Shown: positions 9,182 to 57,185 of the stretch, one piece after another
How the letters are laid out: each line of letters begins with the position of its first letter
Position numbering within the stretch: position 1 is the first letter of the stretch
IMG/VR virus record: IMGVR_UViG_3300045988_110372
Coordinates: 17,924 to 81,923 of that record
Length of the DNA stretch: 64,000 nt
DNA from: a virus
Direction: 5' to 3' (one strand)
Notes under the pieces: generated by a model
Databases searched by the model: none
Told to the model about the DNA's origin: nothing
Seen by the model: the letters and a program-made list of their open reading frames with translations, nothing else
Made by a program: the position numbers and the translations under genes

Positions 9182-11845
9182 CTAACTCCAAAAACTATCG
9201 TCAAATACGTTTGCCTTATCCAATCCTAAATCGTTATCCTCTTCCAACGCCACTTCCGAAGCTATAAGCTCCTGACCGTATTCGTATTTCAACAGAGGAA
9301 GCATCCTCATTGCAATAGGGTCTAGCAAGTCCATAGACCTGTTCTTTCCCAACATCTGATTCATTTCCTTCTTGTTGAAAAGCGTCTTTTTACCACTGGG
9401 CAAACCTTTCCATCTCACGACAGAACACTCTTCTATAAATTCCGTCTTTATCGTAATGGGATTGCTCATTCTCTTGTGAGGATAAATAGCTTCCGCAATA
9501 GAATCCTCAAATGAAAGCAAACCTCTCTTTATAACCTCTACCAATCGTCCGTAGCACTCGTCCTTCATGTTGTAGTGCATACGCCAATACAACCCATTTG
9601 GTCTGTTGTATGATTTAAAACCTATCGCACCGTTGATATAGTCGTTTATATAAGCAGCCCTAATAGCATCGTAGATTATATGATTGTCAGGTATTCCGTG
9701 TCTTTCTGCCATCTGCATCAGCATCTCTGCGTTAAGTCGTGGCGTACTTGTACATAATATCTTATAGTCTATGATATGCAGACCGTTCCAAACAAGTATT
9801 ACCGTGTTATCGTCACCAGTGTCAGCCAAGTCTGCCGTTATCCATTTGTCGTTGTTCTTTCGTGGGTCGTTGTTGAAAACGCTTTCGGCAGTAGCGTATG
9901 GGATAGGTGCTTCTGCATCGTTTTTTAAAGATACATTCCAATTACCTTCAATAAGCTGTTGTGCCTGCCTTCCACCAACTGCTGCAACACTACCAGCGTA
10001 GTCCATATTGTTACCGATAGAAGCCTTGTTCTCTGACATTCTACCTAAATAGAATGTAAAGCTTTTTATAAGGTTCTTATATGTAAACCCACCACCTAAA
10101 GATTTTATCTTTCTATCAATATCGTCCCTGCATTTTCTGTAAACTTCTTCTTTTGAATCACCCCAAACAACATCGTCTACATTCTCTCCTTGAAGATAGA
10201 AGTATCTCACGACACCGTTTCTATCTTCCATTATTTGCCCATCCAATCCAACATACCAATCAATGAATTTTCTAACCCAGCAGTCTTTTTCGGGGTTTGT
10301 AGTTCCTCTGAATTTGCCCGACCATTTGGCTTTACCACGGTTACGTGATAGTAGATATTTGAACGTAGAAAACTCATACGAAGTCAATTCGTCCATATAT
10401 ATTAAGTCGTACTGGCTACCTTTCCAAGTTTCAGTTACCTTTCGTATATTTTCATCGTTAATCTGCCTGAAATCAACAAACGCCCCTGACGGAAACCTTA
10501 CACGTGGAGGGTCTGTTGATTTCACTTCAATGTGATTACCATAGGCAGATTTAAAATCGTCTGTCAAAGAACCACCACCTTTCAATTCCGAGAATGTTCT
10601 TCGTGTGAAACATGCACGGAAATTTGGGTCTAATGATGGCTCGGCAACAGAAAGGATTGCAGCAAAAGACTTTCCGCAGTTCCTTGTTATAACGTATCCA
10701 TCTGTTAAATATATATGCTCGTTACCCGAAACATTTATACATCTAACATTTTTTTTGCCGACAAGTTTATAATCCATAATGCTTAGCATTGTGCTACATT
10801 TTCTGTCTTTTTCAGTTATAGCCTTATTTTTTTTTCTATCTAAGCAAAACAAATCTTTATCATTCTTAGTCCACACTAACAATCCGTAAGATTTAGCACA
10901 GTTTACCTCTTTCCCATTTTGTATTCTTTTTGTTTTATCTGTAATGTGTATTGAACATCTTCCACCTATACTCCATATTAATTCTTGAATATCATTTGCC
11001 AAATTTTCACTTGTTGTCCTGTAAGAAACTCTGCTTTTCCTATTTGTGCTAGATTGGGAGCAGCAGCCATCTGTATCGAACAGCCCTCTTATAAGCTCCA
11101 TTCTGTCTTCTATACTTGAATACTTATATATGTTAGGTATAAATTTATCATAAGACAATTTGCCCCACAATCCAAGTTCCTTCAAATACTCAACAACTTC
11201 TTTATTTCTGATGCAATAATGCAGGCTATTCTTATTTTTACTTTCTTTAACTATATCATATCCTAACCCTTTTATTCTTTCAATAGTTTGATAATCCTTA
11301 GAATGGCAAGCAAGGTCAGCTCTATGTAACTTATTAGATAAACAACCATCGCCTATTAGACAACCTAGTAAATACGGATGTATTTTAAGATTATCTTTTT
11401 TGTAAAAAGATACAGGCTGAGTAAGAGGTATTCTCAATCTATTCACATGTCTTTTATCCCTATTCTTAGATTTATCAATATATTTTATAATATCTTCGGA
11501 AGAAATATCAATAATATTTCCATGCCTTTCTTTTACCATCCAACGGTGAGAAAGAGCACTCTGAACCTTCCTTCCATCTTGTAACGTAAACTCAACAACA
11601 TCTTGTAGTCCTTTGTCTATTACAAAATTAACCACTTGATTTCCACCCATTGGATTATGTATTATATCTCCTACCTTTATATCTCCCATTTTTCTAAATC
11701 CGTCAGGAGTTGATATTAAGGCATCCATTGGTTGAGGGTTGAGTACCCCTCCGCCTATAACCACGTCTATATTGCTGCGGACGAAATTTTCTTGAAATCC
11801 TTCCTGCGGTCTGATAATTCTTATTTCACTTTCTTCATTTGCCAT
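9182..11845 (-). CDS. terL: Terminase large subunit, interrupted by an intein in the Walker A loop
   Basis: The exteins read ...VVIGGGVLN / CGKSFAAILS..., which regenerates GxxxxGKS. Walker B-like LIYMDE is present, and a C-terminal nuclease-type region follows. 887 aa including a 353-aa insert. Confidence 0.9.
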   Translation of the reverse strand: MANEESEIRIIRPQEGFQENFVRSNIDVVIGGGVLNPQPMDALISTPDGFRKMGDIKVGDIIHNPMGGNQVVNFVIDKGLQDVVEFTLQDGRKVQSALSHRWMVKERHGNIIDISSEDIIKYIDKSKNRDKRHVNRLRIPLTQPVSFYKKDNLKIHPYLLGCLIGDGCLSNKLHRADLACHSKDYQTIERIKGLGYDIVKESKNKNSLHYCIRNKEVVEYLKELGLWGKLSYDKFIPNIYKYSSIEDRMELIRGLFDTDGCCSQSSTNRKSRVSYRTTSENLANDIQELIWSIGGRCSIHITDKTKRIQNGKEVNCAKSYGLLVWTKNDKDLFCLDRKKNKAITEKDRKCSTMLSIMDYKLVGKKNVRCINVSGNEHIYLTDGYVITRNCGKSFAAILSVAEPSLDPNFRACFTRRTFSELKGGGSLTDDFKSAYGNHIEVKSTDPPRVRFPSGAFVDFRQINDENIRKVTETWKGSQYDLIYMDELTSYEFSTFKYLLSRNRGKAKWSGKFRGTTNPEKDCWVRKFIDWYVGLDGQIMEDRNGVVRYFYLQGENVDDVVWGDSKEEVYRKCRDDIDRKIKSLGGGFTYKNLIKSFTFYLGRMSENKASIGNNMDYAGSVAAVGGRQAQQLIEGNWNVSLKNDAEAPIPYATAESVFNNDPRKNNDKWITADLADTGDDNTVILVWNGLHIIDYKILCTSTPRLNAEMLMQMAERHGIPDNHIIYDAIRAAYINDYINGAIGFKSYNRPNGLYWRMHYNMKDECYGRLVEVIKRGLLSFEDSIAEAIYPHKRMSNPITIKTEFIEECSVVRWKGLPSGKKTLFNKKEMNQMLGKNRSMDLLDPIAMRMLPLLKYEYGQELIASEVALEEDNDLGLDKANVFDDSFWS
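10679..11737 (-). mobile_element. Intein with LAGLIDADG homing endonuclease domain (about Pro37-Asn389 of TerL)
   Basis: Hint block A-like PQPMDALISTPDG. Block B SHRW. LAGLIDADG motifs YLLGCLIGDGC and LIRGLFDTDGC. Block F VRCINVSGNEHIYLTDG. Block G YVITRN followed by the +1 Cys. Confidence 0.8.
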
Positions 11846-14528: not shown

Positions 14529-15695
14529 ATGGCAAAATTCGATATTAAAAACAGCATGTACGCACAATTCTATTCGGATGCTACAATGCTGCGTACTTAC
14601 GTAAACGAAGATGCTCTTTTGCGCACCAATTTCGGTTTTTGGAGAAGTCAGTTTGAAATCAATCCTGAAACTACTCCTACCGATGAAAAGGGCGTAGCGG
14701 CTTATCATGTTGAGGAAGTTATTGAAACCATAGCTCCGATGGCAGAAGTACGTGCCCCGCTTGGTCGTTCTAAGGCTATTGACCGTGAAGGAACAGCGTG
14801 GAGAACTGGTACTATTCCTGACTTGATTTCTTTCGGTTACTACGAAAACGCTTTTGAAAGAAGCTATGAAAATGACATCTTAGACCAGTACGGTCGTGAC
14901 AAGGCACTTATCATGCAGTGGACTAAACAAGTTCAGAAGCAGGTGGATTCACTGAATCAGGCTTTGTCAAACATGTCTGCACAGTTACTGTCTACTGGTA
15001 AGATTGACTACACAAACGGTCGTGGTCTGAAATACTACCATGACATGCAGTTGCCTAAAGAAAATATTCAGAAGGCAGGTACAGGTGCTTGGGCTACCAA
15101 GTCTACAAAGATTTTAGACCAAATGGCTAAGATTGAGAATGACTTCCGCATGAAAACTGGTTTTGAAGGTGCTATGAAATGGCAGATTCCTTACGATATG
15201 TGGATGAATACATTCCTGACTAACGAGCAGGTAATTGAATGGGTTAAATTCTCTAAGGCACTTGTAGGAATCACTGTTCCCGAAACATCTATCGTAACTC
15301 CTGACGAAGCAAATATTGCTATCGCTAAGTACGGTAAGATTTCACCTATTGAAATTATCGTTGAAAAACAGAACAACTTCTCTACAATGGTTAGCGGATG
15401 GAAGAGCAACATGGCTGTATTGCGTCCTGCGGGATATGCTGGTTACATCATGCACACAGACATTCTTGACAAGAAGATGCACGACAGAGCAGGTGCTAAA
15501 TCTGTATCTAAGGTGTTTGCTCCTGTTGGTGAAGGCGGTCTGTTCACATTGATTAACATCAACCGTGACAACGGTGACTATCAGGAATGGTCTACTGAAA
15601 CAGTTGTTTCTGCTGCTCCTACATTGACAGAATTTACAAAACACATTCTTGTCAAGACAGACGAGGCAGGTGAAGGAACTACAACTTTGGATTAA
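14529..15695 (+). CDS. Major capsid protein (lambda gpE / HK97-fold type)
   Basis: 388 aa. Strong aaggagg RBS at 14516-14522. The position and the highly-expressed codon bias fit. My recollection of E-family capsid proteins is only approximate. Confidence 0.75.
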   Translation: MAKFDIKNSMYAQFYSDATMLRTYVNEDALLRTNFGFWRSQFEINPETTPTDEKGVAAYHVEEVIETIAPMAEVRAPLGRSKAIDREGTAWRTGTIPDLISFGYYENAFERSYENDILDQYGRDKALIMQWTKQVQKQVDSLNQALSNMSAQLLSTGKIDYTNGRGLKYYHDMQLPKENIQKAGTGAWATKSTKILDQMAKIENDFRMKTGFEGAMKWQIPYDMWMNTFLTNEQVIEWVKFSKALVGITVPETSIVTPDEANIAIAKYGKISPIEIIVEKQNNFSTMVSGWKSNMAVLRPAGYAGYIMHTDILDKKMHDRAGAKSVSKVFAPVGEGGLFTLININRDNGDYQEWSTETVVSAAPTLTEFTKHILVKTDEAGEGTTTLD

Positions 15696-18698: not shown

Positions 18699-21600
18699 AT
18701 GGCAGAAGATTTTGCAATAGGTAAAGAGTTGGAGATACCGAAATCGGTACTTGACAATATAGACAAGATAGACAAGAAGATTAACGACATATCTAAAGAT
18801 TCTGAATTGATGGCACAGAAGTTTGGCTTGGCAATGACTAAAATGGCATCCAATTCCGACAGCTTGCTAAAGAAGTTGACCGAGATGCAGTCTAAGATAA
18901 ATTCTATGGATATATCAAAGTTTGCACAAGGTGTTTCTAATGTAAGCAAAGGAACTGCCCAAATAGAACAATTCTCAAACGCAATATCAAAGGCTGCTGC
19001 TGCTATCAATAAATACAACAACAGTCAGACTAAACAGAAGTCTGTAACAAACGACAAGGAAATAGAACGGCTCAACAAGGAAATAGAGGCGTTAAAAAAG
19101 AAAACGGAGCAATTAGAAAAATATAGAAAAAAACAGAAGCAAGTAACCGAAGAACAAAGTAGTTCACGAGTTAATACAAAAGCTATTGATGCCTACAACC
19201 GTGCTATGGCTAGTTCGGAAGCTTTGGTTACTCAACGTATCAACAAGATAGCGAAGCTTCGTCAGGCAGAAGAGATGCTTTTAAAGACAGGCAAAGATTA
19301 TTCTGCAAACATATCTAAGATTCGTTCAGAGATAGAAAGACTGAATAAACTAAATCAAGGTCAGGTAGATTCTTACGGAAGGATAATAAGGTCACATCAG
19401 AATCTGATGAATACCTCCGACCAGTTAATGAGAAAGCTTGCTTTGATTTTCTCTGTTTCTCAGATACAAGGCTATCTTATGAACTTGGTTAAAGTTCGTG
19501 GAGAATTTGAATTGCAGAATACCGCACTTGCTTCTATCTTACAGAATAAAGATAAAGCCGACAAGTTGTTTGCGCAGATTACAGAATTGGCGGTTAAGTC
19601 ACCTTTTACATTGAAGGAATTGACTACTTATACAAAGTCTTTGTCTGCTTATCAGGTAGAATACGAAAAGTTGTACGATACAACTAAAATGCTTGCTGAT
19701 GTATCGGCAGGTCTTGGTATAGATATGCAACGATTGATTTTGGCTTTCGGACAGGTGAAAGCCGCGAATGTTTTGCGTGGAACTGAAGTAAGGCAATTTA
19801 CAGAAGCAGGTCTTAACATTCTTGGTGAACTTGCTAAATACTATACTGAACTTGAAGGCAAAATGGTTACGATAGGAGAAGTACAAGACCGTGTTACCAA
19901 GAAAATGGTTGCTTTTGGAGATGTGGAAGAAGTGTTTAAGCGTGTAACATCAGCAGGAGGTATATTCTATAACATGCAGGAAAGACAAGCTGAAACTTTG
20001 GCGGGGCAAATGTCAAACTTGCAGGATAGTATAGATATTATGCTGAACGATATAGGTAAGGCAAATGATGGCATAATTAAAAATATCGTAGCTTCTGTAA
20101 GAACTATTGTAGAAAATTGGGAAATATTTGCCAATCTTATAAATGCAGCTTCGGTAGGGTTTGTTTTATACACAGCTAAAGTTTTACTTGCCGCTAAAGC
20201 CAACAATGCCTTTGCTGCAAGCTCTATTGCTGCTACTGCCGCACAAAGTGGTCTTGTTGGTGCTACCGCTAAAACGATTAAAGTATTTAACTCTTTGATT
20301 GCTTTTGCTAAAGCCAATCCGTTTGTAATGATTGCTTCCGCAGTAGCATATTTAGGTTATGAACTATACGACCATGTAAAGAAAGTTGAGGAAAATAAAA
20401 AGGCTTATGATGTCTTAGTAAACAGTGTAAAAGAAACAGGAAAAAGCTTCAACTCTATCACTTCTAAAATAGAAGAACAAAATGAAAAAATAAGAAAATC
20501 CTTAGATTCACTAGAATCCATAAAGAAAGGAACTAAGGAATATTACGAAGTAGAAAGTGAAGCCAACAAAGAAAGAGAGAAGTTAAATACACTTCTTAAT
20601 GATTTAAAAAACAAATTCCCCGAAGTATATAGTGGAATTGTAAAGCAAAAGGACGGAACGGTAGATTTGACTTCTGCCCAAAAAATATTAAATGAGGAAC
20701 TTGAAAAAACAACATATCTGTCATATCTGTCAAGACAAACCGAAACTTTTTGGAATGAAGGTCTTGTAGAAAACATAAAAGATGCCTCAAAGGAGCAGCA
20801 AAACTATAAGTCAAGCATGGATAACGTTTCTAGCGGATTTATTCAAATGAGTGCAAGAATAAAGGAATATTTTGCTACAAATAAATACGCTTCTAAAGAA
20901 TTGCAGAAACAGCTTGACGATATTGCAAAAAGCTCCATGTCTACATACGATAAGATACAGAAGATGTATTTTGTAGTAAGTAATACAACAGGTGTAAATA
21001 TTGGAGATTTGAGAGATATAATATACGATTATCAAGAAGAAGCTAGAAAAGCCGAAAAAGCTAACGATGCTCTCAATGATTCAAATGGTAAACTTTCTGA
21101 AAGTATAAAGCAAATAGCGGAAGGATATAAGTCTGCTTTTGACATTTCAACAGAAGAAGGCAGAAAATCTGCGCAAAAAGCCACAGAAGAGTTTATAAGG
21201 TTGCTTGATATTAAAGACGAAGCTGTTAGAAAGTTTGTTCAAACCCAATTTGAAGTAAATATAGGGGTAAAGCTTAACATTGAAGGAAAGATTGAAAAGC
21301 AATTCTCTGATATGGAGAAAAGAGTAAATGATTACCTTAAATCCAAAGAGTTTTCTTTAATCCCTAAAGTTGAAGCAGGAGAGGGCACTTCTAAATACTT
21401 TAATGACCTTAAAAATGAATATAAGGACTTAGTAGAAGAAGCAGAAAAGATAAAAAGGGCTAATCAGGAATTGTACCCTGACAAGACAAATGCACAAAGA
21501 CTTGATGAGTTGAATAAAAAGATGGTTCAAGTCAAAAACACCCTTAAAGACTGGGGTGAACTTGAAGAAAAGGGAACTAAGACTTCAAAGCAAAATCCTG

Positions 21601-23897
21601 AATTGAAACGTCTTAAAGACCAAATAGCATTAATCAAGAAAGCAGGAGATGAATACAAGAAGCTAAGACAATATTACAGCGAAGAAGATGCTATCAAGCA
21701 GGTACGTGAATCGTTTGCTGATGCTTTCAGTAATTTAGACCTTGACATTGCTATGTCATTTGATACGGAAGGAGTTGTAAAAGGTATAGAAAACCTTACC
21801 TACAAAACAATACAAGGCGGTAAGGAAGCCGTAGATGAAGCTTTAGCACCTCTGAAATCCGAACAGAATATCAAGGTTAAGGCAGAAGGTCTTGAAGAAA
21901 TACAAAGACAGATTGATGATATTTTCTCTAACTATGAGTTTAACCTCGAACTTCAATCAGCAGGAATAGATGCAGGTGCTTTCAAGAATATGCTTCAAGA
22001 TTTAGGAGTAACTGACGAAGAGATATCTATGGTTGGTCTTGACGCTACTACTTTTGAAGAAGTTGCTGAAAAGGTAAGAAAGGTTATATCTGACTTACAG
22101 AAACAAGGCGGTGACGACCAAATAAAGCAAGCTAGAAAATTCCAAGAGCAGCTTACGGCTTTGGAAGTAAAGGAAGCTAGAAAGAGATTCGATGAACTTG
22201 CTAAACTACGTGAGAAGTATCAGACCAATCAAGAAAAGATGCAGACAGTTCAGACCAATCTGTTTGCCGACAAGGACGCTTTAGCTTTATTGGAAGAACA
22301 GAAAGCTATGGGCAAAGCCGTAAACAAGGAGCAGGAAGAACTGTTGAAATTAAGAATACAAGCTGGCGAGGATGCTCTTTTACAGTTAAAGAGTGAAGCG
22401 TTGCAGCTTACGGACTTTTGGCAAAGACTATTCGGTGACTTGAATGATATAAGCGTAAATTCATTGCTTGAACTGTCTAGGATAACCGATGAAATTATTG
22501 CTAACAGAACAGAGATAAAAGGCGACAAAGGTGATATAAAAGGATATTCTTCGTCTTATACGGATAAGGACGGAATAACCAAGCAGGTTACACTTACAAA
22601 ACAGCAATATCAGCAGTTACTGAAACAGAATAATCAGGTTGCCGATGAAATACAGAAGAAGAATCCTTTCCGTGCGTTGTATGAAGCCATACTGAAAGGC
22701 AAGCAGGAAGGAGAAACACAGCTTGACTATTATACTAGACTTGAAAGTATTATAAACAGTGTATCTGATGCAGCGTTTGGAGCAGCCGAAAACCTTATGG
22801 ATATATTCGGTGCAAGTGACGAAGCAAAAGAAATGCTTAACAATATCAAAGGTATAGCTGACGGTGCTGTAAGTTTGGGAATGGGTGTAGGACGTATAGC
22901 GTCAGGAGATATTATAGGCGGTGGCTTGCAAGCTATAAGCGGTGTGGCAAGTGTAGTCAAGTCAATAATAAATATCCACGACAACAAACGAGAAAAAGAG
23001 ATTCAGCGTCAAATAGATTTGATAGAAGAATTGCAGCGTTCTTATGAGAAGTTGCAGGGAGCTATCGAAGGTGCATATTCTATCAACACATACAAGGCTT
23101 CATACGAACAGTCTGTTGCTAATTTGGAAGCACAGAATGAGGCTTTGAGAAATGCAATAGCAGCGGAACAAGACAAGAAGAAACCTGACGATGATAGAAT
23201 AAAGGAATGGCAGAATCAGATACAAGACAATCTTGACGCTATAAAGGAATTGGAAGAACAGTTTATAGCTGACTTAGGAGGATTCGGAAGTGATGCAAAT
23301 GTCAAGTCTGCCGCACAAGAATTTGCTGATGCTTGGCTTGAAGCCTATATGGAAACTGGTGACGGTCTTGATGCTCTTAGCGACAAATGGGATGAGTATA
23401 TTCAGAATGTAGTAGCCAAACAGTTGATGCTGAAAGGCACTGAAAAGTATTTGAAACCTGTCATGGATATGCTTGACGGTATGTTGCAGGATTCAGTATT
23501 TACACCGAAAGAAGCGGAAGAGATACAAAATAAGATAGACCAAGTTATACCTCAGTTAAATGAGTTTTGGAAAGCGATAGCCGGAAGCTTTGATTTAGGT
23601 GCTGCGGACGAGGGTGATACGATGAGTGGATTGTCTAAATCTATAAGCGGTATCACAGAAGAAACCGCTGATGCTTTGGCTGCAATAACTGAAAGTATAA
23701 GATATTTTAGTGCGGACACAAACGTCAAGGTTAGCGGAATATATAACTTCTTGTTAAATCCACCAGTAGAAAGTCCTTTGTTTGCCGAAATGAAAATGCA
23801 GACTGAACATTTGAGATTGATGTATAATCTTTGGAACTCAATGTCTAAATCAAAGGCAGGTGTTCAAGGACGTGTATTGAAAGTGGAAGTAGTGTAA
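18699..23897 (+). CDS. Tape measure protein
   Basis: 1732 aa, mostly coiled coil, with a central hydrophobic Ala/Gly-rich segment. It follows the chaperone pair. Confidence 0.9.
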   Translation: MAEDFAIGKELEIPKSVLDNIDKIDKKINDISKDSELMAQKFGLAMTKMASNSDSLLKKLTEMQSKINSMDISKFAQGVSNVSKGTAQIEQFSNAISKAAAAINKYNNSQTKQKSVTNDKEIERLNKEIEALKKKTEQLEKYRKKQKQVTEEQSSSRVNTKAIDAYNRAMASSEALVTQRINKIAKLRQAEEMLLKTGKDYSANISKIRSEIERLNKLNQGQVDSYGRIIRSHQNLMNTSDQLMRKLALIFSVSQIQGYLMNLVKVRGEFELQNTALASILQNKDKADKLFAQITELAVKSPFTLKELTTYTKSLSAYQVEYEKLYDTTKMLADVSAGLGIDMQRLILAFGQVKAANVLRGTEVRQFTEAGLNILGELAKYYTELEGKMVTIGEVQDRVTKKMVAFGDVEEVFKRVTSAGGIFYNMQERQAETLAGQMSNLQDSIDIMLNDIGKANDGIIKNIVASVRTIVENWEIFANLINAASVGFVLYTAKVLLAAKANNAFAASSIAATAAQSGLVGATAKTIKVFNSLIAFAKANPFVMIASAVAYLGYELYDHVKKVEENKKAYDVLVNSVKETGKSFNSITSKIEEQNEKIRKSLDSLESIKKGTKEYYEVESEANKEREKLNTLLNDLKNKFPEVYSGIVKQKDGTVDLTSAQKILNEELEKTTYLSYLSRQTETFWNEGLVENIKDASKEQQNYKSSMDNVSSGFIQMSARIKEYFATNKYASKELQKQLDDIAKSSMSTYDKIQKMYFVVSNTTGVNIGDLRDIIYDYQEEARKAEKANDALNDSNGKLSESIKQIAEGYKSAFDISTEEGRKSAQKATEEFIRLLDIKDEAVRKFVQTQFEVNIGVKLNIEGKIEKQFSDMEKRVNDYLKSKEFSLIPKVEAGEGTSKYFNDLKNEYKDLVEEAEKIKRANQELYPDKTNAQRLDELNKKMVQVKNTLKDWGELEEKGTKTSKQNPELKRLKDQIALIKKAGDEYKKLRQYYSEEDAIKQVRESFADAFSNLDLDIAMSFDTEGVVKGIENLTYKTIQGGKEAVDEALAPLKSEQNIKVKAEGLEEIQRQIDDIFSNYEFNLELQSAGIDAGAFKNMLQDLGVTDEEISMVGLDATTFEEVAEKVRKVISDLQKQGGDDQIKQARKFQEQLTALEVKEARKRFDELAKLREKYQTNQEKMQTVQTNLFADKDALALLEEQKAMGKAVNKEQEELLKLRIQAGEDALLQLKSEALQLTDFWQRLFGDLNDISVNSLLELSRITDEIIANRTEIKGDKGDIKGYSSSYTDKDGITKQVTLTKQQYQQLLKQNNQVADEIQKKNPFRALYEAILKGKQEGETQLDYYTRLESIINSVSDAAFGAAENLMDIFGASDEAKEMLNNIKGIADGAVSLGMGVGRIASGDIIGGGLQAISGVASVVKSIINIHDNKREKEIQRQIDLIEELQRSYEKLQGAIEGAYSINTYKASYEQSVANLEAQNEALRNAIAAEQDKKKPDDDRIKEWQNQIQDNLDAIKELEEQFIADLGGFGSDANVKSAAQEFADAWLEAYMETGDGLDALSDKWDEYIQNVVAKQLMLKGTEKYLKPVMDMLDGMLQDSVFTPKEAEEIQNKIDQVIPQLNEFWKAIAGSFDLGAADEGDTMSGLSKSISGITEETADALAAITESIRYFSADTNVKVSGIYNFLLNPPVESPLFAEMKMQTEHLRLMYNLWNSMSKSKAGVQGRVLKVEVV

Positions 23898-23960: not shown

Positions 23961-24818
23961 TTATTGTCGTTCTCTTAAAATATCGTCTACTATCTTCTTG
24001 AAGTATTCCCTACCTTTTACCGTAATAAGAGTTTGTGTACCTGCCTTACCATTCTCTTCTCTGTTCCATTCTTTCAGAACGAAATACTTGTCTACATACT
24101 TCGCAATAGGTTTCAGTTTACCTTTAGCGTCACGATATATATACTTGTTATCAATCAGCATGAAGATAAATGCCTTTTCTCCTATTCCTAAAAGTTTGGC
24201 TGTATCACGGAAGTTTAGGTTATTTCCTCGTTCAATAAGACCGTTAAAATATTCCACTTTGGGGGCATCTTTTTTGATTTTGTTTTCTGCTTCAAGTAAT
24301 CTTTGCTCTTTACGCTTTAATGTTTCTTGTGCAATCATTAAGGCACGAGCCATAAGTTCTTCGGGGGTTTCATTTTCTTTGGCTAGCATATAACCACCCT
24401 GTTTGCGTATTGAGGGCAACACTTCACTTGTAACCCATTTTCTAAATGGTCTTACATTAGGACTATCTGAGAATAAAAGCACATCATAAAAGCCACTTTC
24501 ATTAACAAAATTAGCCATCGAATTGCCTGTTATTTCACCCTCACCGTGTTTTAGGGCGTGTAAATCAATGAGTTGCAAATCTTGTGGGTCTAATCTTGAT
24601 TTCACAGATGATGGATTTTTTAGACCAACAGCCTTGCAAATATCACTCAAACAAAACATAGGCTCATCATTCTTGATTATTACCCTTACATTACCAAACT
24701 CTTGATTGTTGAAAATCTGAATGCCTTTTTCGTTGGCAGACGCTGAATTTTGCAAGCTATCGTTTGCGGAATCAGAAAAATTCATTATCTTTGTCATACT
24801 TTGTATGATTTGCAGCAA
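23961..24818 (-). CDS. Antirepressor (Bro-N + KilAC domains)
   Basis: Bro-N-like FGNVRVIIKNDEPMFCLSDICKAVGL. C-terminal KilAC-like NFRDTAKLLGIGEKAFIFMLIDNKYIY. Confidence 0.8.
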   Translation of the reverse strand: MLQIIQSMTKIMNFSDSANDSLQNSASANEKGIQIFNNQEFGNVRVIIKNDEPMFCLSDICKAVGLKNPSSVKSRLDPQDLQLIDLHALKHGEGEITGNSMANFVNESGFYDVLLFSDSPNVRPFRKWVTSEVLPSIRKQGGYMLAKENETPEELMARALMIAQETLKRKEQRLLEAENKIKKDAPKVEYFNGLIERGNNLNFRDTAKLLGIGEKAFIFMLIDNKYIYRDAKGKLKPIAKYVDKYFVLKEWNREENGKAGTQTLITVKGREYFKKIVDDILRERQ

Positions 24819-24878
24819 ATATACTAATTAAAGCGTTAATTACAAAATGTATTTGCTTAAAAGTTAGCCATGCCTTAG

Positions 24879-25184
24879 TCAAGGTGTGGCTTTCTTGTAT
24901 TCTTCCGTAAAGTTGCTATACATATCCTTGTATATTCTCTGATTGTTAATCATCCAGCCGATGTTGCTTATTCCTTTGAATACGGCTCTTTTGCTTCTGA
25001 AAAACTCTTTGGATAATGTACCTATTGATACGTTTAATTCCTTGTGAAGATAATACCATACAAAATGCCTTGCAAGTGGTATCTGACTGCTTCTGCTTGA
25101 ACTGTAAAGTTTTTTTTCTTCAATTCCGAAATGTTTTGATGCAAATCTACTCAATTTCTCAATCTTCGATTCCATATAATACAC
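24879..25184 (-). CDS. DnaA domain IV-like HTH protein
   Basis: The pattern SRSSQIPLARHFVWYYLHKELNVSIGTLSKEF resembles the DnaA C-terminal DNA-binding domain. Confidence 0.5.
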   Translation of the reverse strand: MYYMESKIEKLSRFASKHFGIEEKKLYSSSRSSQIPLARHFVWYYLHKELNVSIGTLSKEFFRSKRAVFKGISNIGWMINNQRIYKDMYSNFTEEYKKATP

Positions 25185-25394: not shown

Positions 25395-25469
25395 ATGCAA
25401 ATCAAAACTATGGACGGTCAGTCTTATAACGTGACTGGCGCAGGTCAAGGTAATTTTAACACAGTGGGT
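25395..25469 (+). CDS. Exon 1 (25 codons) of the intron-split Cys-rich late gene
   Basis: MQIKTMDGQSYNVTGAGQGNFNTVG. A stop lies at 25380-25382 in frame upstream. The exon ends in gtgggt exactly on a codon boundary, and the final T forms the U.G pair of P1. Confidence 0.7.
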
Positions 25470-26579
25470 AAATAAGGCAGTTGCTCACTTAAAACTCCCT
25501 TAATTGCTGGAAACTCCTAACGTAAAGACGAGGACAATCAGCAGCCAAGTTCTTTGAAATGTTGATTAATATTGCTATATTTACAAATAAATGCATAATT
25601 ATATGGAAGGAGTAGTTTATAAATATACGTCTCCAAGTGGAAAGGTATATATAGGACAAACTTCAAATGAGAAAAGAAGACGTTCTGAGTTTTTTAGAAT
25701 TAATCAATCTTATGGTGAAAGTAAAATGGATAACGCAAGAAAAAAATATGGAGTTGAAAATTTCTTATATGAAGTTTTGTTCAGGGAAGAATTTGACGAC
25801 TTGGGTGTTATGGCTAAAACTTTAAATGAAAAGGAAATGTATTATATAAAACTTTTTGATTCATTTAAAAGTGGCTATAATATGAATGAAGGAGGTGCTG
25901 GTAATGTAGGATTTGAAATGCCAAATGATTCAAGATTGAAAATATCAGAAAACACTAAGCATACAATAAAAGAAAAAGGACATCCGATGAAGGGTAGAAA
26001 GCATACAGAAGAGAGCATAAATAAAATGCGTAAAAATACCCAAAAAAAGTTCGGTAAAGAAAACCCAAATTATGGATGGAAACCATCAAAGGAATTGATT
26101 GATAGGCTTTCTGAATTGTCAAAAATGAGAGTTGGAAATAAGAACCCGTTTTTTGGTAAGCACCATACCGAGGAAAATAAACAAAAATATCGAAATTTGT
26201 TTGGAAAGAAAGTTGTTCAAATAGATAAATTCACAGATAAGGTAATATCAATTTATGATTCAGCAAATGAAGCCGCTATTTCTGTATGTGGTAATATAAA
26301 AGCTGCGTCAGACATAGGAAAGTGCTGCAATGGATACATAAATAAAAAAGGCGTAAAAATAAAAACAGCTCATGGGTATAAATGGCAATGGTATCAACAA
26401 TTCGAAGAAAAGGTTCATCGACTATCGAAAGCATAGGTTAATCCGAATAAGCGAGTAGAGTACATTCAAGTGAATGGAAATGGGGAGCACCAAAAAGGTG
26501 AAGATATAGTCAAATCTGTATAGAAATATACAGCTGCTTTTAGGCGGGTTAGAATTAACGAATCTAACTGAATATTATG
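25470..26579 (+). mobile_element. Group I intron (phage T4 td-like, IA2-type) carrying a GIY-YIG homing endonuclease ORF
   Basis: P1 gtgggt/gctcac (IGS 25483-88). P3 ctccc (25495-99)/gggag (26483-87). P4 tgctg/cagca with GAAAC and CAAT internal loops. P7 gactat (26420-25)/atagtc (26506-11). P8 cacc/ggtg. P9 ctgtata-GAAA-tatacag. P9.2 gttaga/tctaac. Terminal G at 26579. Confidence 0.85.
25591..26436 (+). CDS. GIY-YIG homing endonuclease (I-TevI-like, with NUMOD3 repeats)
   Basis: GVVYKYTSPSGKVYIGQT...R..E...YNMNEGG. Three GxxHTEE/NPxxG repeats. C-terminal AHGYKWQW. Its last codons overlap the intron P7 strand. Confidence 0.9.
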   Translation: MHNYMEGVVYKYTSPSGKVYIGQTSNEKRRRSEFFRINQSYGESKMDNARKKYGVENFLYEVLFREEFDDLGVMAKTLNEKEMYYIKLFDSFKSGYNMNEGGAGNVGFEMPNDSRLKISENTKHTIKEKGHPMKGRKHTEESINKMRKNTQKKFGKENPNYGWKPSKELIDRLSELSKMRVGNKNPFFGKHHTEENKQKYRNLFGKKVVQIDKFTDKVISIYDSANEAAISVCGNIKAASDIGKCCNGYINKKGVKIKTAHGYKWQWYQQFEEKVHRLSKA

Positions 26580-27011
26580 GCTGCTGCTGGTATTGCTTCT
26601 TTCTTGGGTATTAACGGTGGTAATATCTTAGGTCGCAGCGGTTGGGGATGTAACGGTGAAGGTTGTTGCTCTGACAACACAATGGTAAACCGTTACGAAC
26701 TGAACATGGCACGTGAAGCAGATTCTCTGAAATCAGAAAATGCTTTGCTGCGTTCTCAGGTTTACGTTGACCAAAAGCTGGTTGATGTTGTGAACGACTA
26801 CACATCTAAGATTAACGCTTTGGGTGTAGAAGTACGTGCCAACAAGGATGCTCAGACTGCCGTTAACTTGCAGCAAACAGCTTTGAACGCTACTCAGACC
26901 GCTACAATTAGCGCAATGAGTGCTCAGATTGCTCAGTTGCAGTCTTTGTCACAGTTTATTGTACCAAGCAATAAGGTTTGCGACACTTGCTGCTGCGGTT
27001 GTGCTCAGTAA
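26580..27011 (+). CDS. Exon 2 of the intron-split gene: coiled-coil protein with Cys clusters (spanin-like or virion protein?)
   Basis: Track ORF 26577-27011 minus its ATG, which is the intron 3' end (..attatG). Contains GWGCNGEGCC and C-terminal CDTCCCGC. In frame with exon 1. Confidence 0.8.
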   Translation, partial: AAAGIASFLGINGGNILGRSGWGCNGEGCCSDNTMVNRYELNMAREADSLKSENALLRSQVYVDQKLVDVVNDYTSKINALGVEVRANKDAQTAVNLQQTALNATQTATISAMSAQIAQLQSLSQFIVPSNKVCDTCCCGCAQ

Positions 27012-56475: not shown

Positions 56476-56507
56476 AATATAATATTGTTAATTGTTAGTA
56501 ACTTTCT

Positions 56508-56794
56508 TTATTTGTTGATTCTTTCTTTAGTTGTAAAGAACTTTAAAACCAAAAATGCGCCGTCACTGTATAGTGCAATAGACTTTATTTTTGCGCTTGA
56601 ATACAATAGCTTAAAAGCAGATTCAGGCAAAGCAACAGAGCACACAAGAAAACTTTTTCCGTTCTCTTTAATTTCAGTAAAACCACCTTTTTGGGTAAAA
56701 GTCTTTACAATACATACTCTTTACTTGTGTTCTTTATTCTTTTAATCTGTTTTTCCGAAAGTTCACAAAGAACTGCTTTTACCATATCTTTCAT
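56508..56794 (-). pseudogene. Small early gene split over two frames
   Basis: MKDMVKAVLCELSEKQIKRIKNTSKEYVL* (56705-56794) is followed in another frame, with no start codon, by KTFTQKGGFTEIKENGKSFLVCSVALPESAFKLLYSSAKIKSIALYSDGAFLVLKFF... ending at 56508. Confidence 0.3.
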
Positions 56795-57185
56795 AAGACT
56801 AATATTTAATTGTGAATACTCTTTTGTTTACTCTGCATTTTCACGGGCTTGTAACCGCCTAACAGGCTGCATTAAACAAGCAATAGAAAGCCGTCTAAAC
56901 TGTTTTCTTTCGATTCGTTTCTCTCTCTGTTGCTTTATCGAGTTTATTAGTGCCTACACTAATTTTACAATTTTGTCAATAATTCAAAGAACTATAAAGT
57001 AAGTTCTGTAATATAGGTTGAAAGGTTCACACTTATGAATATAACGCTTTCCTGATATTATAGATATTGAAGAAATACCATATAAAAGAAAGACTTATTT
57101 ATATTTATGAGGTATATAACTAATCAATATTTAAAGAACTATCTGTTTTCTTGTCTGATACAAAGGTAAGACTTTTATTTGAAAC

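Follow-up and report, generated by a model that had tools for sequence, protein, structure and literature searches.

The td intron of phage T4 interrupts the thymidylate synthase gene and is assigned to IA2, the phage td/Twort subgroup in the classification of Michel and Westhof. Its P6a loop houses the gene of I-TevI, a GIY-YIG enzyme, whose 3′ end overlaps the P6a′ and P6′ strands. The intron of Lactococcus phage Tuc2009 is located in a major structural protein gene (orf37/orf39), and the Tuc2009 record states that the flanking ORFs are linked upon excision of a group I intron; this intron contains an HNH-type ORF (RefSeq annotation). StB12-type introns, found in the lysin/peptidoglycan hydrolase gene of a Staphylococcus phage, are ca. 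270 nt long and contain no endonuclease ORF. Group I introns and homing endonucleases also break up genes of Bacteroides-infecting gut phages, e.g., the Jug jumbo phages, in which metatranscriptome reads confirmed that the introns are spliced (PMC12880540). The Jug-type introns average ca. 206 nt, carry no ORFs and reside in the terL, nrdD and polymerase genes of phages with genomes of 360-402 kb (PMC12880540).

An initial annotation, made from the letters of the 64,000-nucleotide stretch under study (the window) alone, had proposed a complete group I intron between a 25-codon exon and an ORF called as 144 aa long. The Rfam matches, blastn comparisons and covariation described below place an intron exactly there. 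Very probably, this is a mobile group I intron that belongs to the phage IA (td/Twort/Tuc2009) type and splits a conserved gene, 168 codons long, in a tailed gut phage of ca. 80 kb that has not been cultured (Table 1). Samples with this phage include the ones behind IMGVR_UViG_3300029243_000006 and 3300045988_111972. The intron and its endonuclease gene are a real but ordinary sort of phage element.

Table 1. Positions of the predicted intron, its structural elements and the flanking exons in the window. Slashes separate the two strands of a helix.
Feature	Positions	Strand	Description
Exon 1	25395..25469	+	25 codons, MQIKTMDGQSYNVTGAGQGNFNTVG; last six bases GUGGGU (25464-25469) are the P1 5′ strand; U25469 is the predicted 5′ splice-site U
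Group I intron (predicted)	25470..26579	+	1,110 nt; IA (td-like) architecture; terminal G at 26579; Rfam matches, blastn, covariation
Internal guide sequence	25476..25488	+	GGCAGU (25476-81) pairs with exon 2 start (P10); GCUCAC (25483-88) pairs with exon 1 end (P1)
P1	25464..25469/25483..25488		gtgggt/gctcac; G-C, U-A, G-C, G.U, G-C, then U25469.G25483 at the 5′ splice site
P10	26580..26585/25476..25481		GCUGCU/GGCAGU; adjoins P1 on one guide sequence
5′ core half	25495..25546	+	P3 5′ strand, P4, J4/5 GAAAC, P5, J5/4 CAAU, P6 5′ strand GCC (25544-46)
P3	25495..25500/26482..26487		ctccc(t)/(g)gggag
P4	25505..25509/25539..25543		tgctg/cagca
P5	25515..25518/25531..25534		tcct/agga
P6a 5′ strand	25550..25558	+	UUCUUUGAA; partner 26401-26409; closes the loop containing the endonuclease gene
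Homing-endonuclease gene	25603..26436	+	277 aa from the conserved ATG 25603, the probable start (281 aa from 25591); stop TAG 26434-36; in P6a loop
P6a 3′ strand, P6 3′ strand, J6/7, P7 5′ strand	26401..26425	+	all within the endonuclease reading frame; P6a 3′ strand UUCGAAGAA (26401-09); P6 3′ strand GGU (26412-14); J6/7 UCAUC
P7	26420..26425/26506..26511		gactat/atagtc
P7.1 and P7.2, IA-specific extra helices	26431..26476	+	P7.1 GC 26431-32/GC 26451-52, variable insert inside; P7.2 CAUUC-AAGU-GAAUG, 26463-76; comparison of copies, compensatory changes
P3 3′ strand, P8, J8/7, P7 3′ strand	26482..26511	+	GGGGAG 26482-87; P8 CACC-AAAAA-GGUG, 26488-26500; J8/7 AAGAU; AUAGUC 26506-11; RF00028 27.8 bits
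3′ peripheral domain	26516..26579	+	P9 ctgtata-GAAA-tatacag, 26516-26533; P9.1 26536-45; P9.2 gttaga-attaacgaa-tctaac, 26548-26568, conserved loop AUUAACGAA; tail UGAAUAUUAUG to terminal G 26579
Exon 2	26580..27011	+	143 codons and stop, AAAGIASFLG...CCCGCAQ

The covariance-model search that had been proposed along with the intron was run over the whole window with the Rfam model RF00028. At the gathering threshold (50 bits) there was no match; below the threshold, in E-value mode, two collinear partial matches in the right order were retrieved, 25505-25594 (model positions 60-138, 31.8 bits, E = 6.2e-6) and 26499-26531 (model positions 219-251, 27.8 bits, E = 9.9e-5). Nothing scores at gathering because an ORF of ca. 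840 nt in L6a splits the core and the model is unable to bridge it. Relatives that have these core blocks but no ORF are matched by RF00028 over its full length (StB12, 100.1 and 94.8 bits; L089 and L101, 83-89 bits), and blastn ties both halves of the intron to phage introns that are either annotated or scored by Rfam, including that of Tuc2009. Rfam at its gathering threshold overlooks ORF-bearing group I introns; sub-threshold split matches, used together with a homologue lacking the intron, bring them to light.

By identity, introns of Lactococcus and Staphylococcus phages (66-71%) come nearest among those known, and T4 td is ca. 61% identical (60.6% over the aligned core). Among annotated introns, that of Tuc2009 is closest, with 70.6% identity when compared from P3 on: its block UUGCUGGGAAC(Y)CCUAACGUAAAGACGAGG(R)CAAUCAGCAG is nearly identical in the window intron, P6/P6a close in the same way around the ORF, J6/7 is UCACC instead of UCAUC, and the 6-bp P1 likewise ends in U.G but has another sequence. 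Unlike the window intron, it has the HNH-type ORF, a P2 hairpin, a different host gene and a Firmicutes host. The StB12-type introns (65-69% identity) share identical P5/L5 and P7.2 blocks (GAGUAGAGUACAUUCAAGUGAAUGGAAAUGG) and differ in the presence of P2, a large P7.1 and the missing ORF. Since Firmicutes phages harbour the nearest known relatives of the window intron, intron cores may have been exchanged across distant phage groups. The introns of Bacteroides gut phages come from the same habitat and their hosts are probably related to that of the window phage; the window intron differs from them in its length and GIY-YIG gene and in the smaller genome of its phage.

The initial annotation had named several blocks as matching td, and comparison with the real td sequence confirmed them: GACAATC, GACTATC, GAGTAG..TCAAGTGA, GATATAGTC and ATTAACGA are literally common to both, and the tail reads TGAATATTATG in the window intron versus TGAACATAATG in td. 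In the RNA, the literally common blocks read GACAAUC, GACUAUC, GAGUAG, UCAAGUGA, GAUAUAGUC and AUUAACGA, the last one being the L9.2 sequence, which StB12 has as well; P7 is the same in td, StB12 and Tuc2009, and the 3′ tail follows U-G-A-A-N-A-U-N-A-U-G in both the window intron and td. The order of helices is also that of td, with P7.1, P7.2, P9.1 and P9.2 included, and so is the place of the endonuclease ORF. The label “td-like” holds for the architecture (P7.1/P7.2, P9.1/P9.2, an ORF within L6a, and collinearity of its GIY-YIG product with I-TevI) but not for P2, which td has and the window intron lacks, nor for kinship, since the nearest known relatives are introns of Firmicutes phages and not td. 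Further differences from td are the host gene, which here encodes a small coiled-coil protein, and the end of the ORF: I-TevI stops in J6/7, whereas the window ORF crosses the P7 5′ strand and reaches P7.1. The window intron has the IA2 features P7.1, P7.2, P9.1 and P9.2 and no P2, a helix that is not certain to define IA2.

A core consisting of P3, P4, P5, P6, P7 and P8 with the P3/P7 pseudoknot can be formed by the sequence. Each of the pairings listed in the initial annotation (P1, P3, P4, P5, P7, P8, P9 and P9.2) is present where it had been placed; the list was incomplete, as P6/P6a, P7.1, P7.2, P9.1 and P10, all of them present, were missing from it. For P9.1, GCU/GGC was preferred to CUGC/GCGG on comparison with L002, L003, L016 and L017, further copies of the same intron. 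A “P6 hairpin” within 25549-25594, offered by the Rfam local alignment, was rejected; the long-range P6/P6a closure covaries. A single-sequence minimum free energy fold of the intron with the ORF deleted recovered P5, P6a, P7.2, P8 and P9 (z-score -2.8 relative to mononucleotide shuffles) and did not recover the long-range and pseudoknotted helices.

Covariation was assessed with two sets of introns. Across nine introns, 96.6% of cells at 46 core pairs were paired, compared to 35-44% when the partners were slid, and 23 of the 46 pairs showed compensatory changes, among them pairs in P3, P4, P5 and P6. None of 500 shuffles matched the observed percentage paired, the number of compensatory changes or the covariation score. 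The few unpaired cells are mostly due to alignment error, since MAFFT placed td one position out at P5 and at the 5′ strand of P4 in the alignment of this set. P7.2 has three compensatory pairs, and five of the six pairs of P9.2 are compensatory across the family. The second set comprised five variants of the window intron and 72 pairs, including those of P1, P10, P6a, P7.1 and P9.1. Here, 96.4% were paired (33-47% when slid) and compensatory changes were found at 12 pairs, including some in P10, P6a, P7.1 and P9.1. In P6a (88.9% paired), a U-A pair is replaced by C-G in L016 and L017; in P7.1, C-G becomes U-A in L002, and the helix is shrunk to GC-GAAA-GC in L015 and L016. The third pair of P10 is U-A in the window copy and G-C in L017; L003 has one mismatch in this helix and in L016 the register is shifted. 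P1 is 100% paired in the five copies and, because its sequence is invariant, has no covariation support of its own. Since the endonucleases of the five copies have diverged to 65-87% identity, the preservation of pairing by compensatory change indicates ongoing selection on RNA structure.

The joining of position 25469 to 26580 is in frame and yields a 168-aa protein, as the initial annotation had claimed for the 25-codon exon and the AAAGIASFLG... stretch. The ligated junction reads GGU/GCU, the predicted spliced sequence is ...AACACAGTGGGT/GCTGCTGCTGG... and the junction peptide is NFNTVGAAAGIASFLG. Without splicing, the frame of exon 1 meets a TAA one codon into the intron. A search with the spliced product found 818 homologues. 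Among the 120 listed, most have lengths between 156 and 188 aa, typically ca. 160-175 aa, and cover 94-100% of the product, and in 27 of the 120 the junction NFNTVGAAAGIASFLG (NFNTVG/AAAGIASFLG) is unbroken. The comparison with intron-less homologues that had been suggested at the outset gave nearly end-to-end coverage by most of those listed. At the DNA level, intron-less L001 reads ggtcgga/gctgctgctggtattgc at the junction.

Judged by these alignments, the 144-aa ORF is a truncated artefact of the predicted 168-residue protein, which agrees with the initial view of it: most of the listed homologues carry exon 1 and exon 2 fused. Since the 3′ end of the intron is ...attatG with the G at 26579, the ATG at 26577-26579 would be the last three bases of the intron. 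It belongs to the conserved intron 3′ tail (AUAAUG in td) and is not a conserved start, because the same codon is AAG in L015. Public records list the 144-aa form, seen on 73 contigs, as a hypothetical protein from metagenome-assembled genomes of Caudoviricetes. It lacks the most conserved N-terminal motif of this family of more than 800 members, which the correct product of 168 aa has. Neither Pfam nor PHROGs gave anything significant for the 168-aa product, and no match was obtained when the spliced protein was run by tblastn against 50,697 GenBank phage records, which therefore contain no cultured-phage homologue of the host gene. In the AlphaFold2 model (mean pLDDT 60.7), only a long helix, residues 63-152, was modelled with any confidence.

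Gene callers have produced three separate ORFs at the locus, and free-standing GIY-YIG genes are common in phages. One may therefore suppose that a free-standing homing-endonuclease gene lies between two independent small genes, for the 26-aa and the 144-aa ORFs, with no RNA splicing involved. We consider this exceedingly improbable, since the flanks of the endonuclease ORF make a covarying group I core and most listed homologues have the two exons in one frame. In addition, four homologues start with MAAAG (P0005, P0030, P0053 and P0100), and the three that were traced (P0030, P0053 and P0100) all immediately follow the same intron and its endonuclease gene. Homologues with a MAAAG start of their own and no exon 1, which the initial annotation had named as evidence against a spliced gene, were thus not found among those traced.

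It could also be argued that the intron has decayed and no longer splices, the host gene being either a pseudogene or limited to a 144-aa C-terminal product that starts at ATG 26577. The exact spliced 168-aa protein had no match in a collection of ca. 15 billion proteins, which leaves no spliced cDNA contig on record; this, the missing P2 and the Rfam score under the threshold speak for decay. It is nevertheless very unlikely, as all core helices are intact, the five diverged copies keep their pairing by compensatory change, both exons are open and in frame in every intron-bearing copy, and the ATG needed to start the shorter protein is the intron tail discussed above. We infer splicing of the intron from its sequence and from comparison with its relatives.

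The ORF in the P6a loop encodes a protein with an N-terminal GIY-YIG domain, NUMOD3 repeats and an I-TevI-like C-terminal part, a domain order collinear with that of I-TevI. It matched PHROG homing-endonuclease families (E from 1.7e-30 to 3e-9, and 7.6e-12 for one described as “homing endonuclease with GIY-YIG motif”) and, in two stretches, NUMOD3 (37.6 bits, cutoff 20.4); the Pfam GIY-YIG score of 14.2 bits is under the 22.6-bit cutoff. BLASTP against I-TevI gave E = 2e-5 with 27% identity and hhalign E = 0.0015 at a probability of only 17%. The segments VVYKY...KVYIGQT, EKRRR, NEKEMYYI and GYNMN align with GIYQI...KVYVGSA, EKRWK, IERENFWI and GYNI of I-TevI; at the GIY, YIG, Arg, Glu and Asn positions there is no variation among the five copies that cover them. 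There was no match to the endonuclease in PDB by phmmer; a profile of five endonuclease sequences weakly matched the I-TevI DNA-binding domain 1I3J (E = 0.02).

The initial annotation had placed a GIY-YIG ORF, 25591-26436, in the P6 position and let its last codons supply the P7 5′ strand. The latter stands, and P6/P6a do close around the ORF. The start is probably the conserved codon at 25603 (MEGVVYKY), the ATG at 25591 not being conserved in the sister copies, and the tail runs on into P7.1, so that the last 36 nt overlap P6a′, P6′, J6/7, the P7 5′ strand and the start of P7.1. In the sister copies this tail is in different frames, which points to a stretch constrained as RNA and not as protein. 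In L017, the endonuclease ORF already stops upstream of P6a′.

Splicing would take place after transcription as follows. Exogenous guanosine bound in P7 would attack after U25469, and the freed exon 1 would be held on the guide sequence. P10 would then bring in exon 2, and exon 1 would attack after G26579; ligation at GGU/GCU would restore ...NFNTVG/AAAGIASFLG... Between P1 and P3, only UUAAAA (25489-94) is found in all five copies, whereas td, StB12 and Tuc2009 form a P2 hairpin there; in the window copy, P7.1 has just two closing pairs and P9.1 three, which makes both helices weak. A genuine intron that has lost P2 might not splice autonomously and need protein help for folding in vivo, from a phage or host maturase or chaperone of the StpA or CYT-18-like kind or from its own endonuclease. 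This is unlikely, though less so than decay of the intron: the GAAA tetraloop of L9, P7.2 and P9.2 with its conserved loop are retained, and several natural group I introns without P2 still self-splice. How such introns are known to work is left unchanged by these findings.

Ribosomes that finish the endonuclease ORF would unfold the core, the frame covering P6a′, P6′ and the P7 5′ strand, and endonuclease translation and splicing should therefore exclude each other on any one transcript. For I-TevI in td, translation and splicing have likewise been described as mutually exclusive on one transcript. Rather speculatively, the intron and its endonuclease may be a weapon between co-infecting gut phages that cuts a conserved gene in rivals, with ORF read-through into P7 as a switch between splicing (own fitness) and endonuclease output and the P2-less version as a minimal IA variant common in Bacteroidota phages; we regard this as a doubtful, if conceivable, extension of the data.

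Gut phages were already known to contain group I introns; the locus contributes an I-TevI-like mobile one from a hitherto undescribed host gene and phage lineage. Enzymes of the I-TevI kind cleave ca. 20-25 nt upstream of the site of insertion. The endonuclease of the window intron would cut intron-less alleles of co-infecting relatives, and repair would copy the intron in. Such homing would explain the patchy presence of the intron at one site: IMG/VR contains 47 intron-less alleles versus four intron-bearing ones, and about half of the intron-less alleles retain the GUGGGU splice-site context.

The initial annotation had proposed a td-like group I intron at window positions 25470-26579, with a search against RF00028, the Rfam group I intron model, as a check. 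At the gathering threshold, no Rfam match was obtained anywhere in the window. In E-value mode, RF00028 gave two collinear partial matches, one between positions 25505-25594 and model positions 60-138 (P4-P6, 31.8 bits) and one between positions 26499-26531 and model positions 219-251 (J8/7, P7′ and P9, 27.8 bits). There is no single match because an ORF of ~840 nt separates the two halves. Both halves match known introns in blastn comparisons with GenBank phages, among them those of Lactococcus phage Tuc2009, whose record links orf37 and orf39 once a group I intron is excised, and of Staphylococcus phage StB12, whose ORF-less introns match RF00028 in full (100.1 and 94.8 bits). ORF-less relatives with the same P4′-P6 and P6′-P7 sequences, L089 and L101, score 83-89 bits. 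The split RF00028 matches, the likeness to known introns and the covariation described below all support the proposal, and on the sequence evidence we identify 25470-26579 as a group I intron; the original observation and its interpretation were both right, with refinements.

The sequence between 25200 and 27200 was read and exact coordinates of the helices were computed. All pairings drawn in the initial annotation are present at their stated positions; P6/P6a, P7.1, P7.2, P9.1 and P10 exist in addition. U25469 and G25483 form the wobble at the 5′ splice site. The terminal G of the intron is 26579, and thus the ATG at 26577-79, the called start of a 144-aa ORF, is indeed made of the last three intron bases. 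Exon 1 (25395-25469) comprises 25 codons, and its frame meets a TAA one codon inside the intron. No P2 can be formed, as only UUAAAA (25489-94) lies between P1 and P3 in five of five copies. A short "P6 hairpin" suggested by the Rfam local alignment was rejected as P6, since the real P6/P6a closes around the ORF.

Coordinates of intron helices and of phage genes identified in the window
Feature	Position	Strand	Remark
P1	GUGGGU 25464-69 with GCUCAC 25483-88	+	
P3	CUCCCU 25495-500 with GGGGAG 26482-87	+	
P4	25505-09 with 25539-43	+	
P5	25515-18 with 25531-34	+	
P6	GCC 25544-46 with GGU 26412-14	+	encloses ORF
P6a	UUCUUUGAA 25550-58 with UUCGAAGAA 26401-09	+	encloses ORF
P7	GACUAU 26420-25 with AUAGUC 26506-11	+	
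P8	26488-91 with 26497-500	+	
P9	26516-22 with 26527-33	+	GAAA loop
P9.2	26548-53 with 26563-68	+	
P10	exon 2 GCUGCU 26580-85 with GGCAGU 25476-81	+	
Large terminase	9182-11845	minus	
Major head protein	14529-15695		
Tape measure protein	18699-23897		
Ant-like anti-repressor	23961-24818	minus	285 aa; PHROG 130, E 1e-63

The pairings were analyzed in an alignment of nine ORF-removed introns (the window intron, two sister copies, Tuc2009, four Staphylococcus-phage introns and T4 td). Over 46 pairs of P3, P4, P5, P6, P7, P7.2, P8, P9 and P9.2, 96.6% of cells were standard-paired, compared with 35-44% when the 3′ partners were slid, and 23 of the pairs were altered on both sides. None of 500 shuffles matched the observed percentage of pairing, number of compensatory changes or covariation score. 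In five diverged copies of this intron at the same site (the window copy and loci L002, L003, L016 and L017), 72 pairs, including those of P1, P10, P6a, P7.1 and P9.1, were 96.4% paired versus 33-47% when slid, with compensatory changes at 12. The third pair of P10 is U-A in the window and G-C in L017, a U-A pair of P6a is C-G in L016 and L017, and a C-G pair of P7.1 is U-A in L002; P7.1 is reduced to GC-GAAA-GC in L015 and L016. P1 is fully paired in the five copies and, being invariant, gains no covariation support by itself.

Joining 25469 to 26580, as initially proposed, restores a conserved frame that yields a 168-aa product, in agreement with both intron-less DNA and contiguous homologues. 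For the predicted product there are 818 homologues, of which 120 were listed; most of these are 156-188 aa long and cover 94-100% of the product. An unbroken ...NFNTVGAAAGIASFLG... is found in 27 of these 120, and in other alleles a variant of this motif occupies the position. The intron-less sequence of L001 reads ...aacacggtcgga/gctgctgctggtattgc... and fixes the junction (slash) to the base. In IMG/VR, 47 intron-less alleles with the AAAG junction stand against 4 intron-bearing contigs, and GTGGGT before the junction is kept in about half of the intron-less ones. Restoration of the reading frame by intron removal is thereby demonstrated at the sequence level. Homologues that begin with MAAAG and have no intron would have favored the 144-aa ORF as a genuine gene. 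P0005, P0030, P0053 and P0100 begin with MAAAG; of these, P0030, P0053 and P0100 were traced, and in each case the same intron with its endonuclease gene immediately precedes the ORF. The N-termini of P0037 and P0113 are translated intron 3′ ends. The 144-aa ORF, which is deposited in NCBI nr as a hypothetical protein from Caudoviricetes metagenome-assembled genomes and occurs on 73 contigs, is thus an artefact, as had been suspected. The 168-aa protein matches no Pfam or PHROG family, and the exact spliced form was not found in a collection of 15 billion proteins. Its predicted model contains just one long helix (63-152), with low overall confidence.

The td 3′ half used for comparison matched T4 at 100%, so that td is represented by its real sequence. 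The designation "td-like" holds for architecture, ORF position and several sequence blocks, but across the core aligned from P3 on, the intron of Tuc2009 (70.6% identity) and four StB12-type introns (65.5-69.2%) are nearer than td (60.6%). In td and Tuc2009, P6/P6a enclose the ORF, as in the window intron, whereas td, StB12 and Tuc2009 each have the P2 hairpin that the window intron lacks. The 20-nt P6′-J6/7-P7 signature (GGUUCAUCGACUAUCGAAAG / GGTTCATCGACTATCGAAAG) was found in 37 IMG/VR viral-contig stretches, several of them in contigs of 190-255 kb, with up to three copies in one large contig (e.g., three each in UViG_3300045988_171772 and _172302). P7.1, P7.2 and P8 differ widely among signature-bearing stretches (L065-L099), and it follows that the window intron belongs to a large family of phage introns. 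These data point to related IA introns scattered over many gut-phage genes. In gut phages that infect Bacteroides, group I introns are already on record, and metatranscriptomes have confirmed their splicing (PMC12880540). In StB12 (JN700520.2), the gene for peptidoglycan hydrolase is annotated as three CDS with no intron feature; its two full-scoring introns occupy 973-1189 and 1444-1711, which makes it, by sequence, another unannotated split gene in the public record.

The intron ORF matches PHROG homing-endonuclease families (E down to 1.7e-30) and NUMOD3 above its cutoff; the Pfam GIY-YIG match is below its cutoff. BLASTP aligns it with I-TevI (27% identity over 224 residues, E 2e-5), with the GIY, YIG, Arg, Glu and Asn positions aligned and invariant in the copies, and a five-copy profile weakly matches the I-TevI DNA-binding domain, 1I3J (E 0.02). 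We take the endonuclease to be distantly related to I-TevI and collinear with it. The ORF does lie in the P6 position, but its proposed start, ATG 25591, is not conserved; MEGVVYKY at 25603 is, and the gene probably starts there. The last codons supply the P7 5′ strand, as noted initially, but the overlap is wider: the frame spans P6a′, P6′, J6/7 and the P7 5′ strand, ending at TAG 26434-36 inside P7.1. In L002, L003 and L016 the tail (26401-26436, the last ~12 codons) is read differently (EKGSSTIES... versus EEKVHRLSKA), its frame being shifted by a single-base difference in an A-run of the P6a/P6 internal loop; the L017 ORF stops before P6a′. This stretch is therefore conserved as RNA and not constrained as protein, and the protein tail is incidental read-through of the ribozyme core. 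Within L6a (25570-25602), TATATTTAC is located ~20 nt before ATG 25603, with a similar ATATTTGC in L016. It resembles the Bacteroidota -7 promoter element, TAnnTTTG, and may serve as an internal promoter driving the endonuclease, comparable to the one of I-TevI in td.

Structure, homology and frame restoration are established by sequence comparison, and the intron is one more instance of a well-known kind of element. Splicing would proceed in two steps initiated by guanosine, the endonuclease would drive homing, and translation of the ORF tail may interfere with P6/P7 folding; interference between translation and folding is known for I-TevI and td. The finding chiefly matters as a correction to the annotation of many public contigs, and it is also a reminder that ORF-bearing introns escape the Rfam gathering threshold.

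The window is a tailed-phage genome, which also encodes an SbcC-like protein and a sliding clamp; identical copies of the intron occur in IMG/VR, on contigs of 79.7 and 82.7 kb. For the terminase, the closest relatives are those of Parabacteroides phages, at only 30% identity, so a Bacteroidales host can only be inferred. Two genes on the opposite strand (23961-25184, minus) separate the tape-measure gene from the intron-bearing one and resemble a small insertion, moron-like or regulatory, into the structural module: the Ant-like anti-repressor and a 101-aa ORF whose L001 counterpart has a Bac_DnaA_C match. At 56825-56878 on the minus strand, there is a match to the full model (1-68) of the type-P1 twister ribozyme, RF03160 (52.6 bits versus a gathering threshold of 67.2; E 6.8e-9 for the whole window), with one optional hairpin replaced by a short loop. 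No minus-strand ORF of ≥50 aa was called there; on the plus strand, the ORFs at 56485-56745 and 56691-57002 overlap or adjoin the match.
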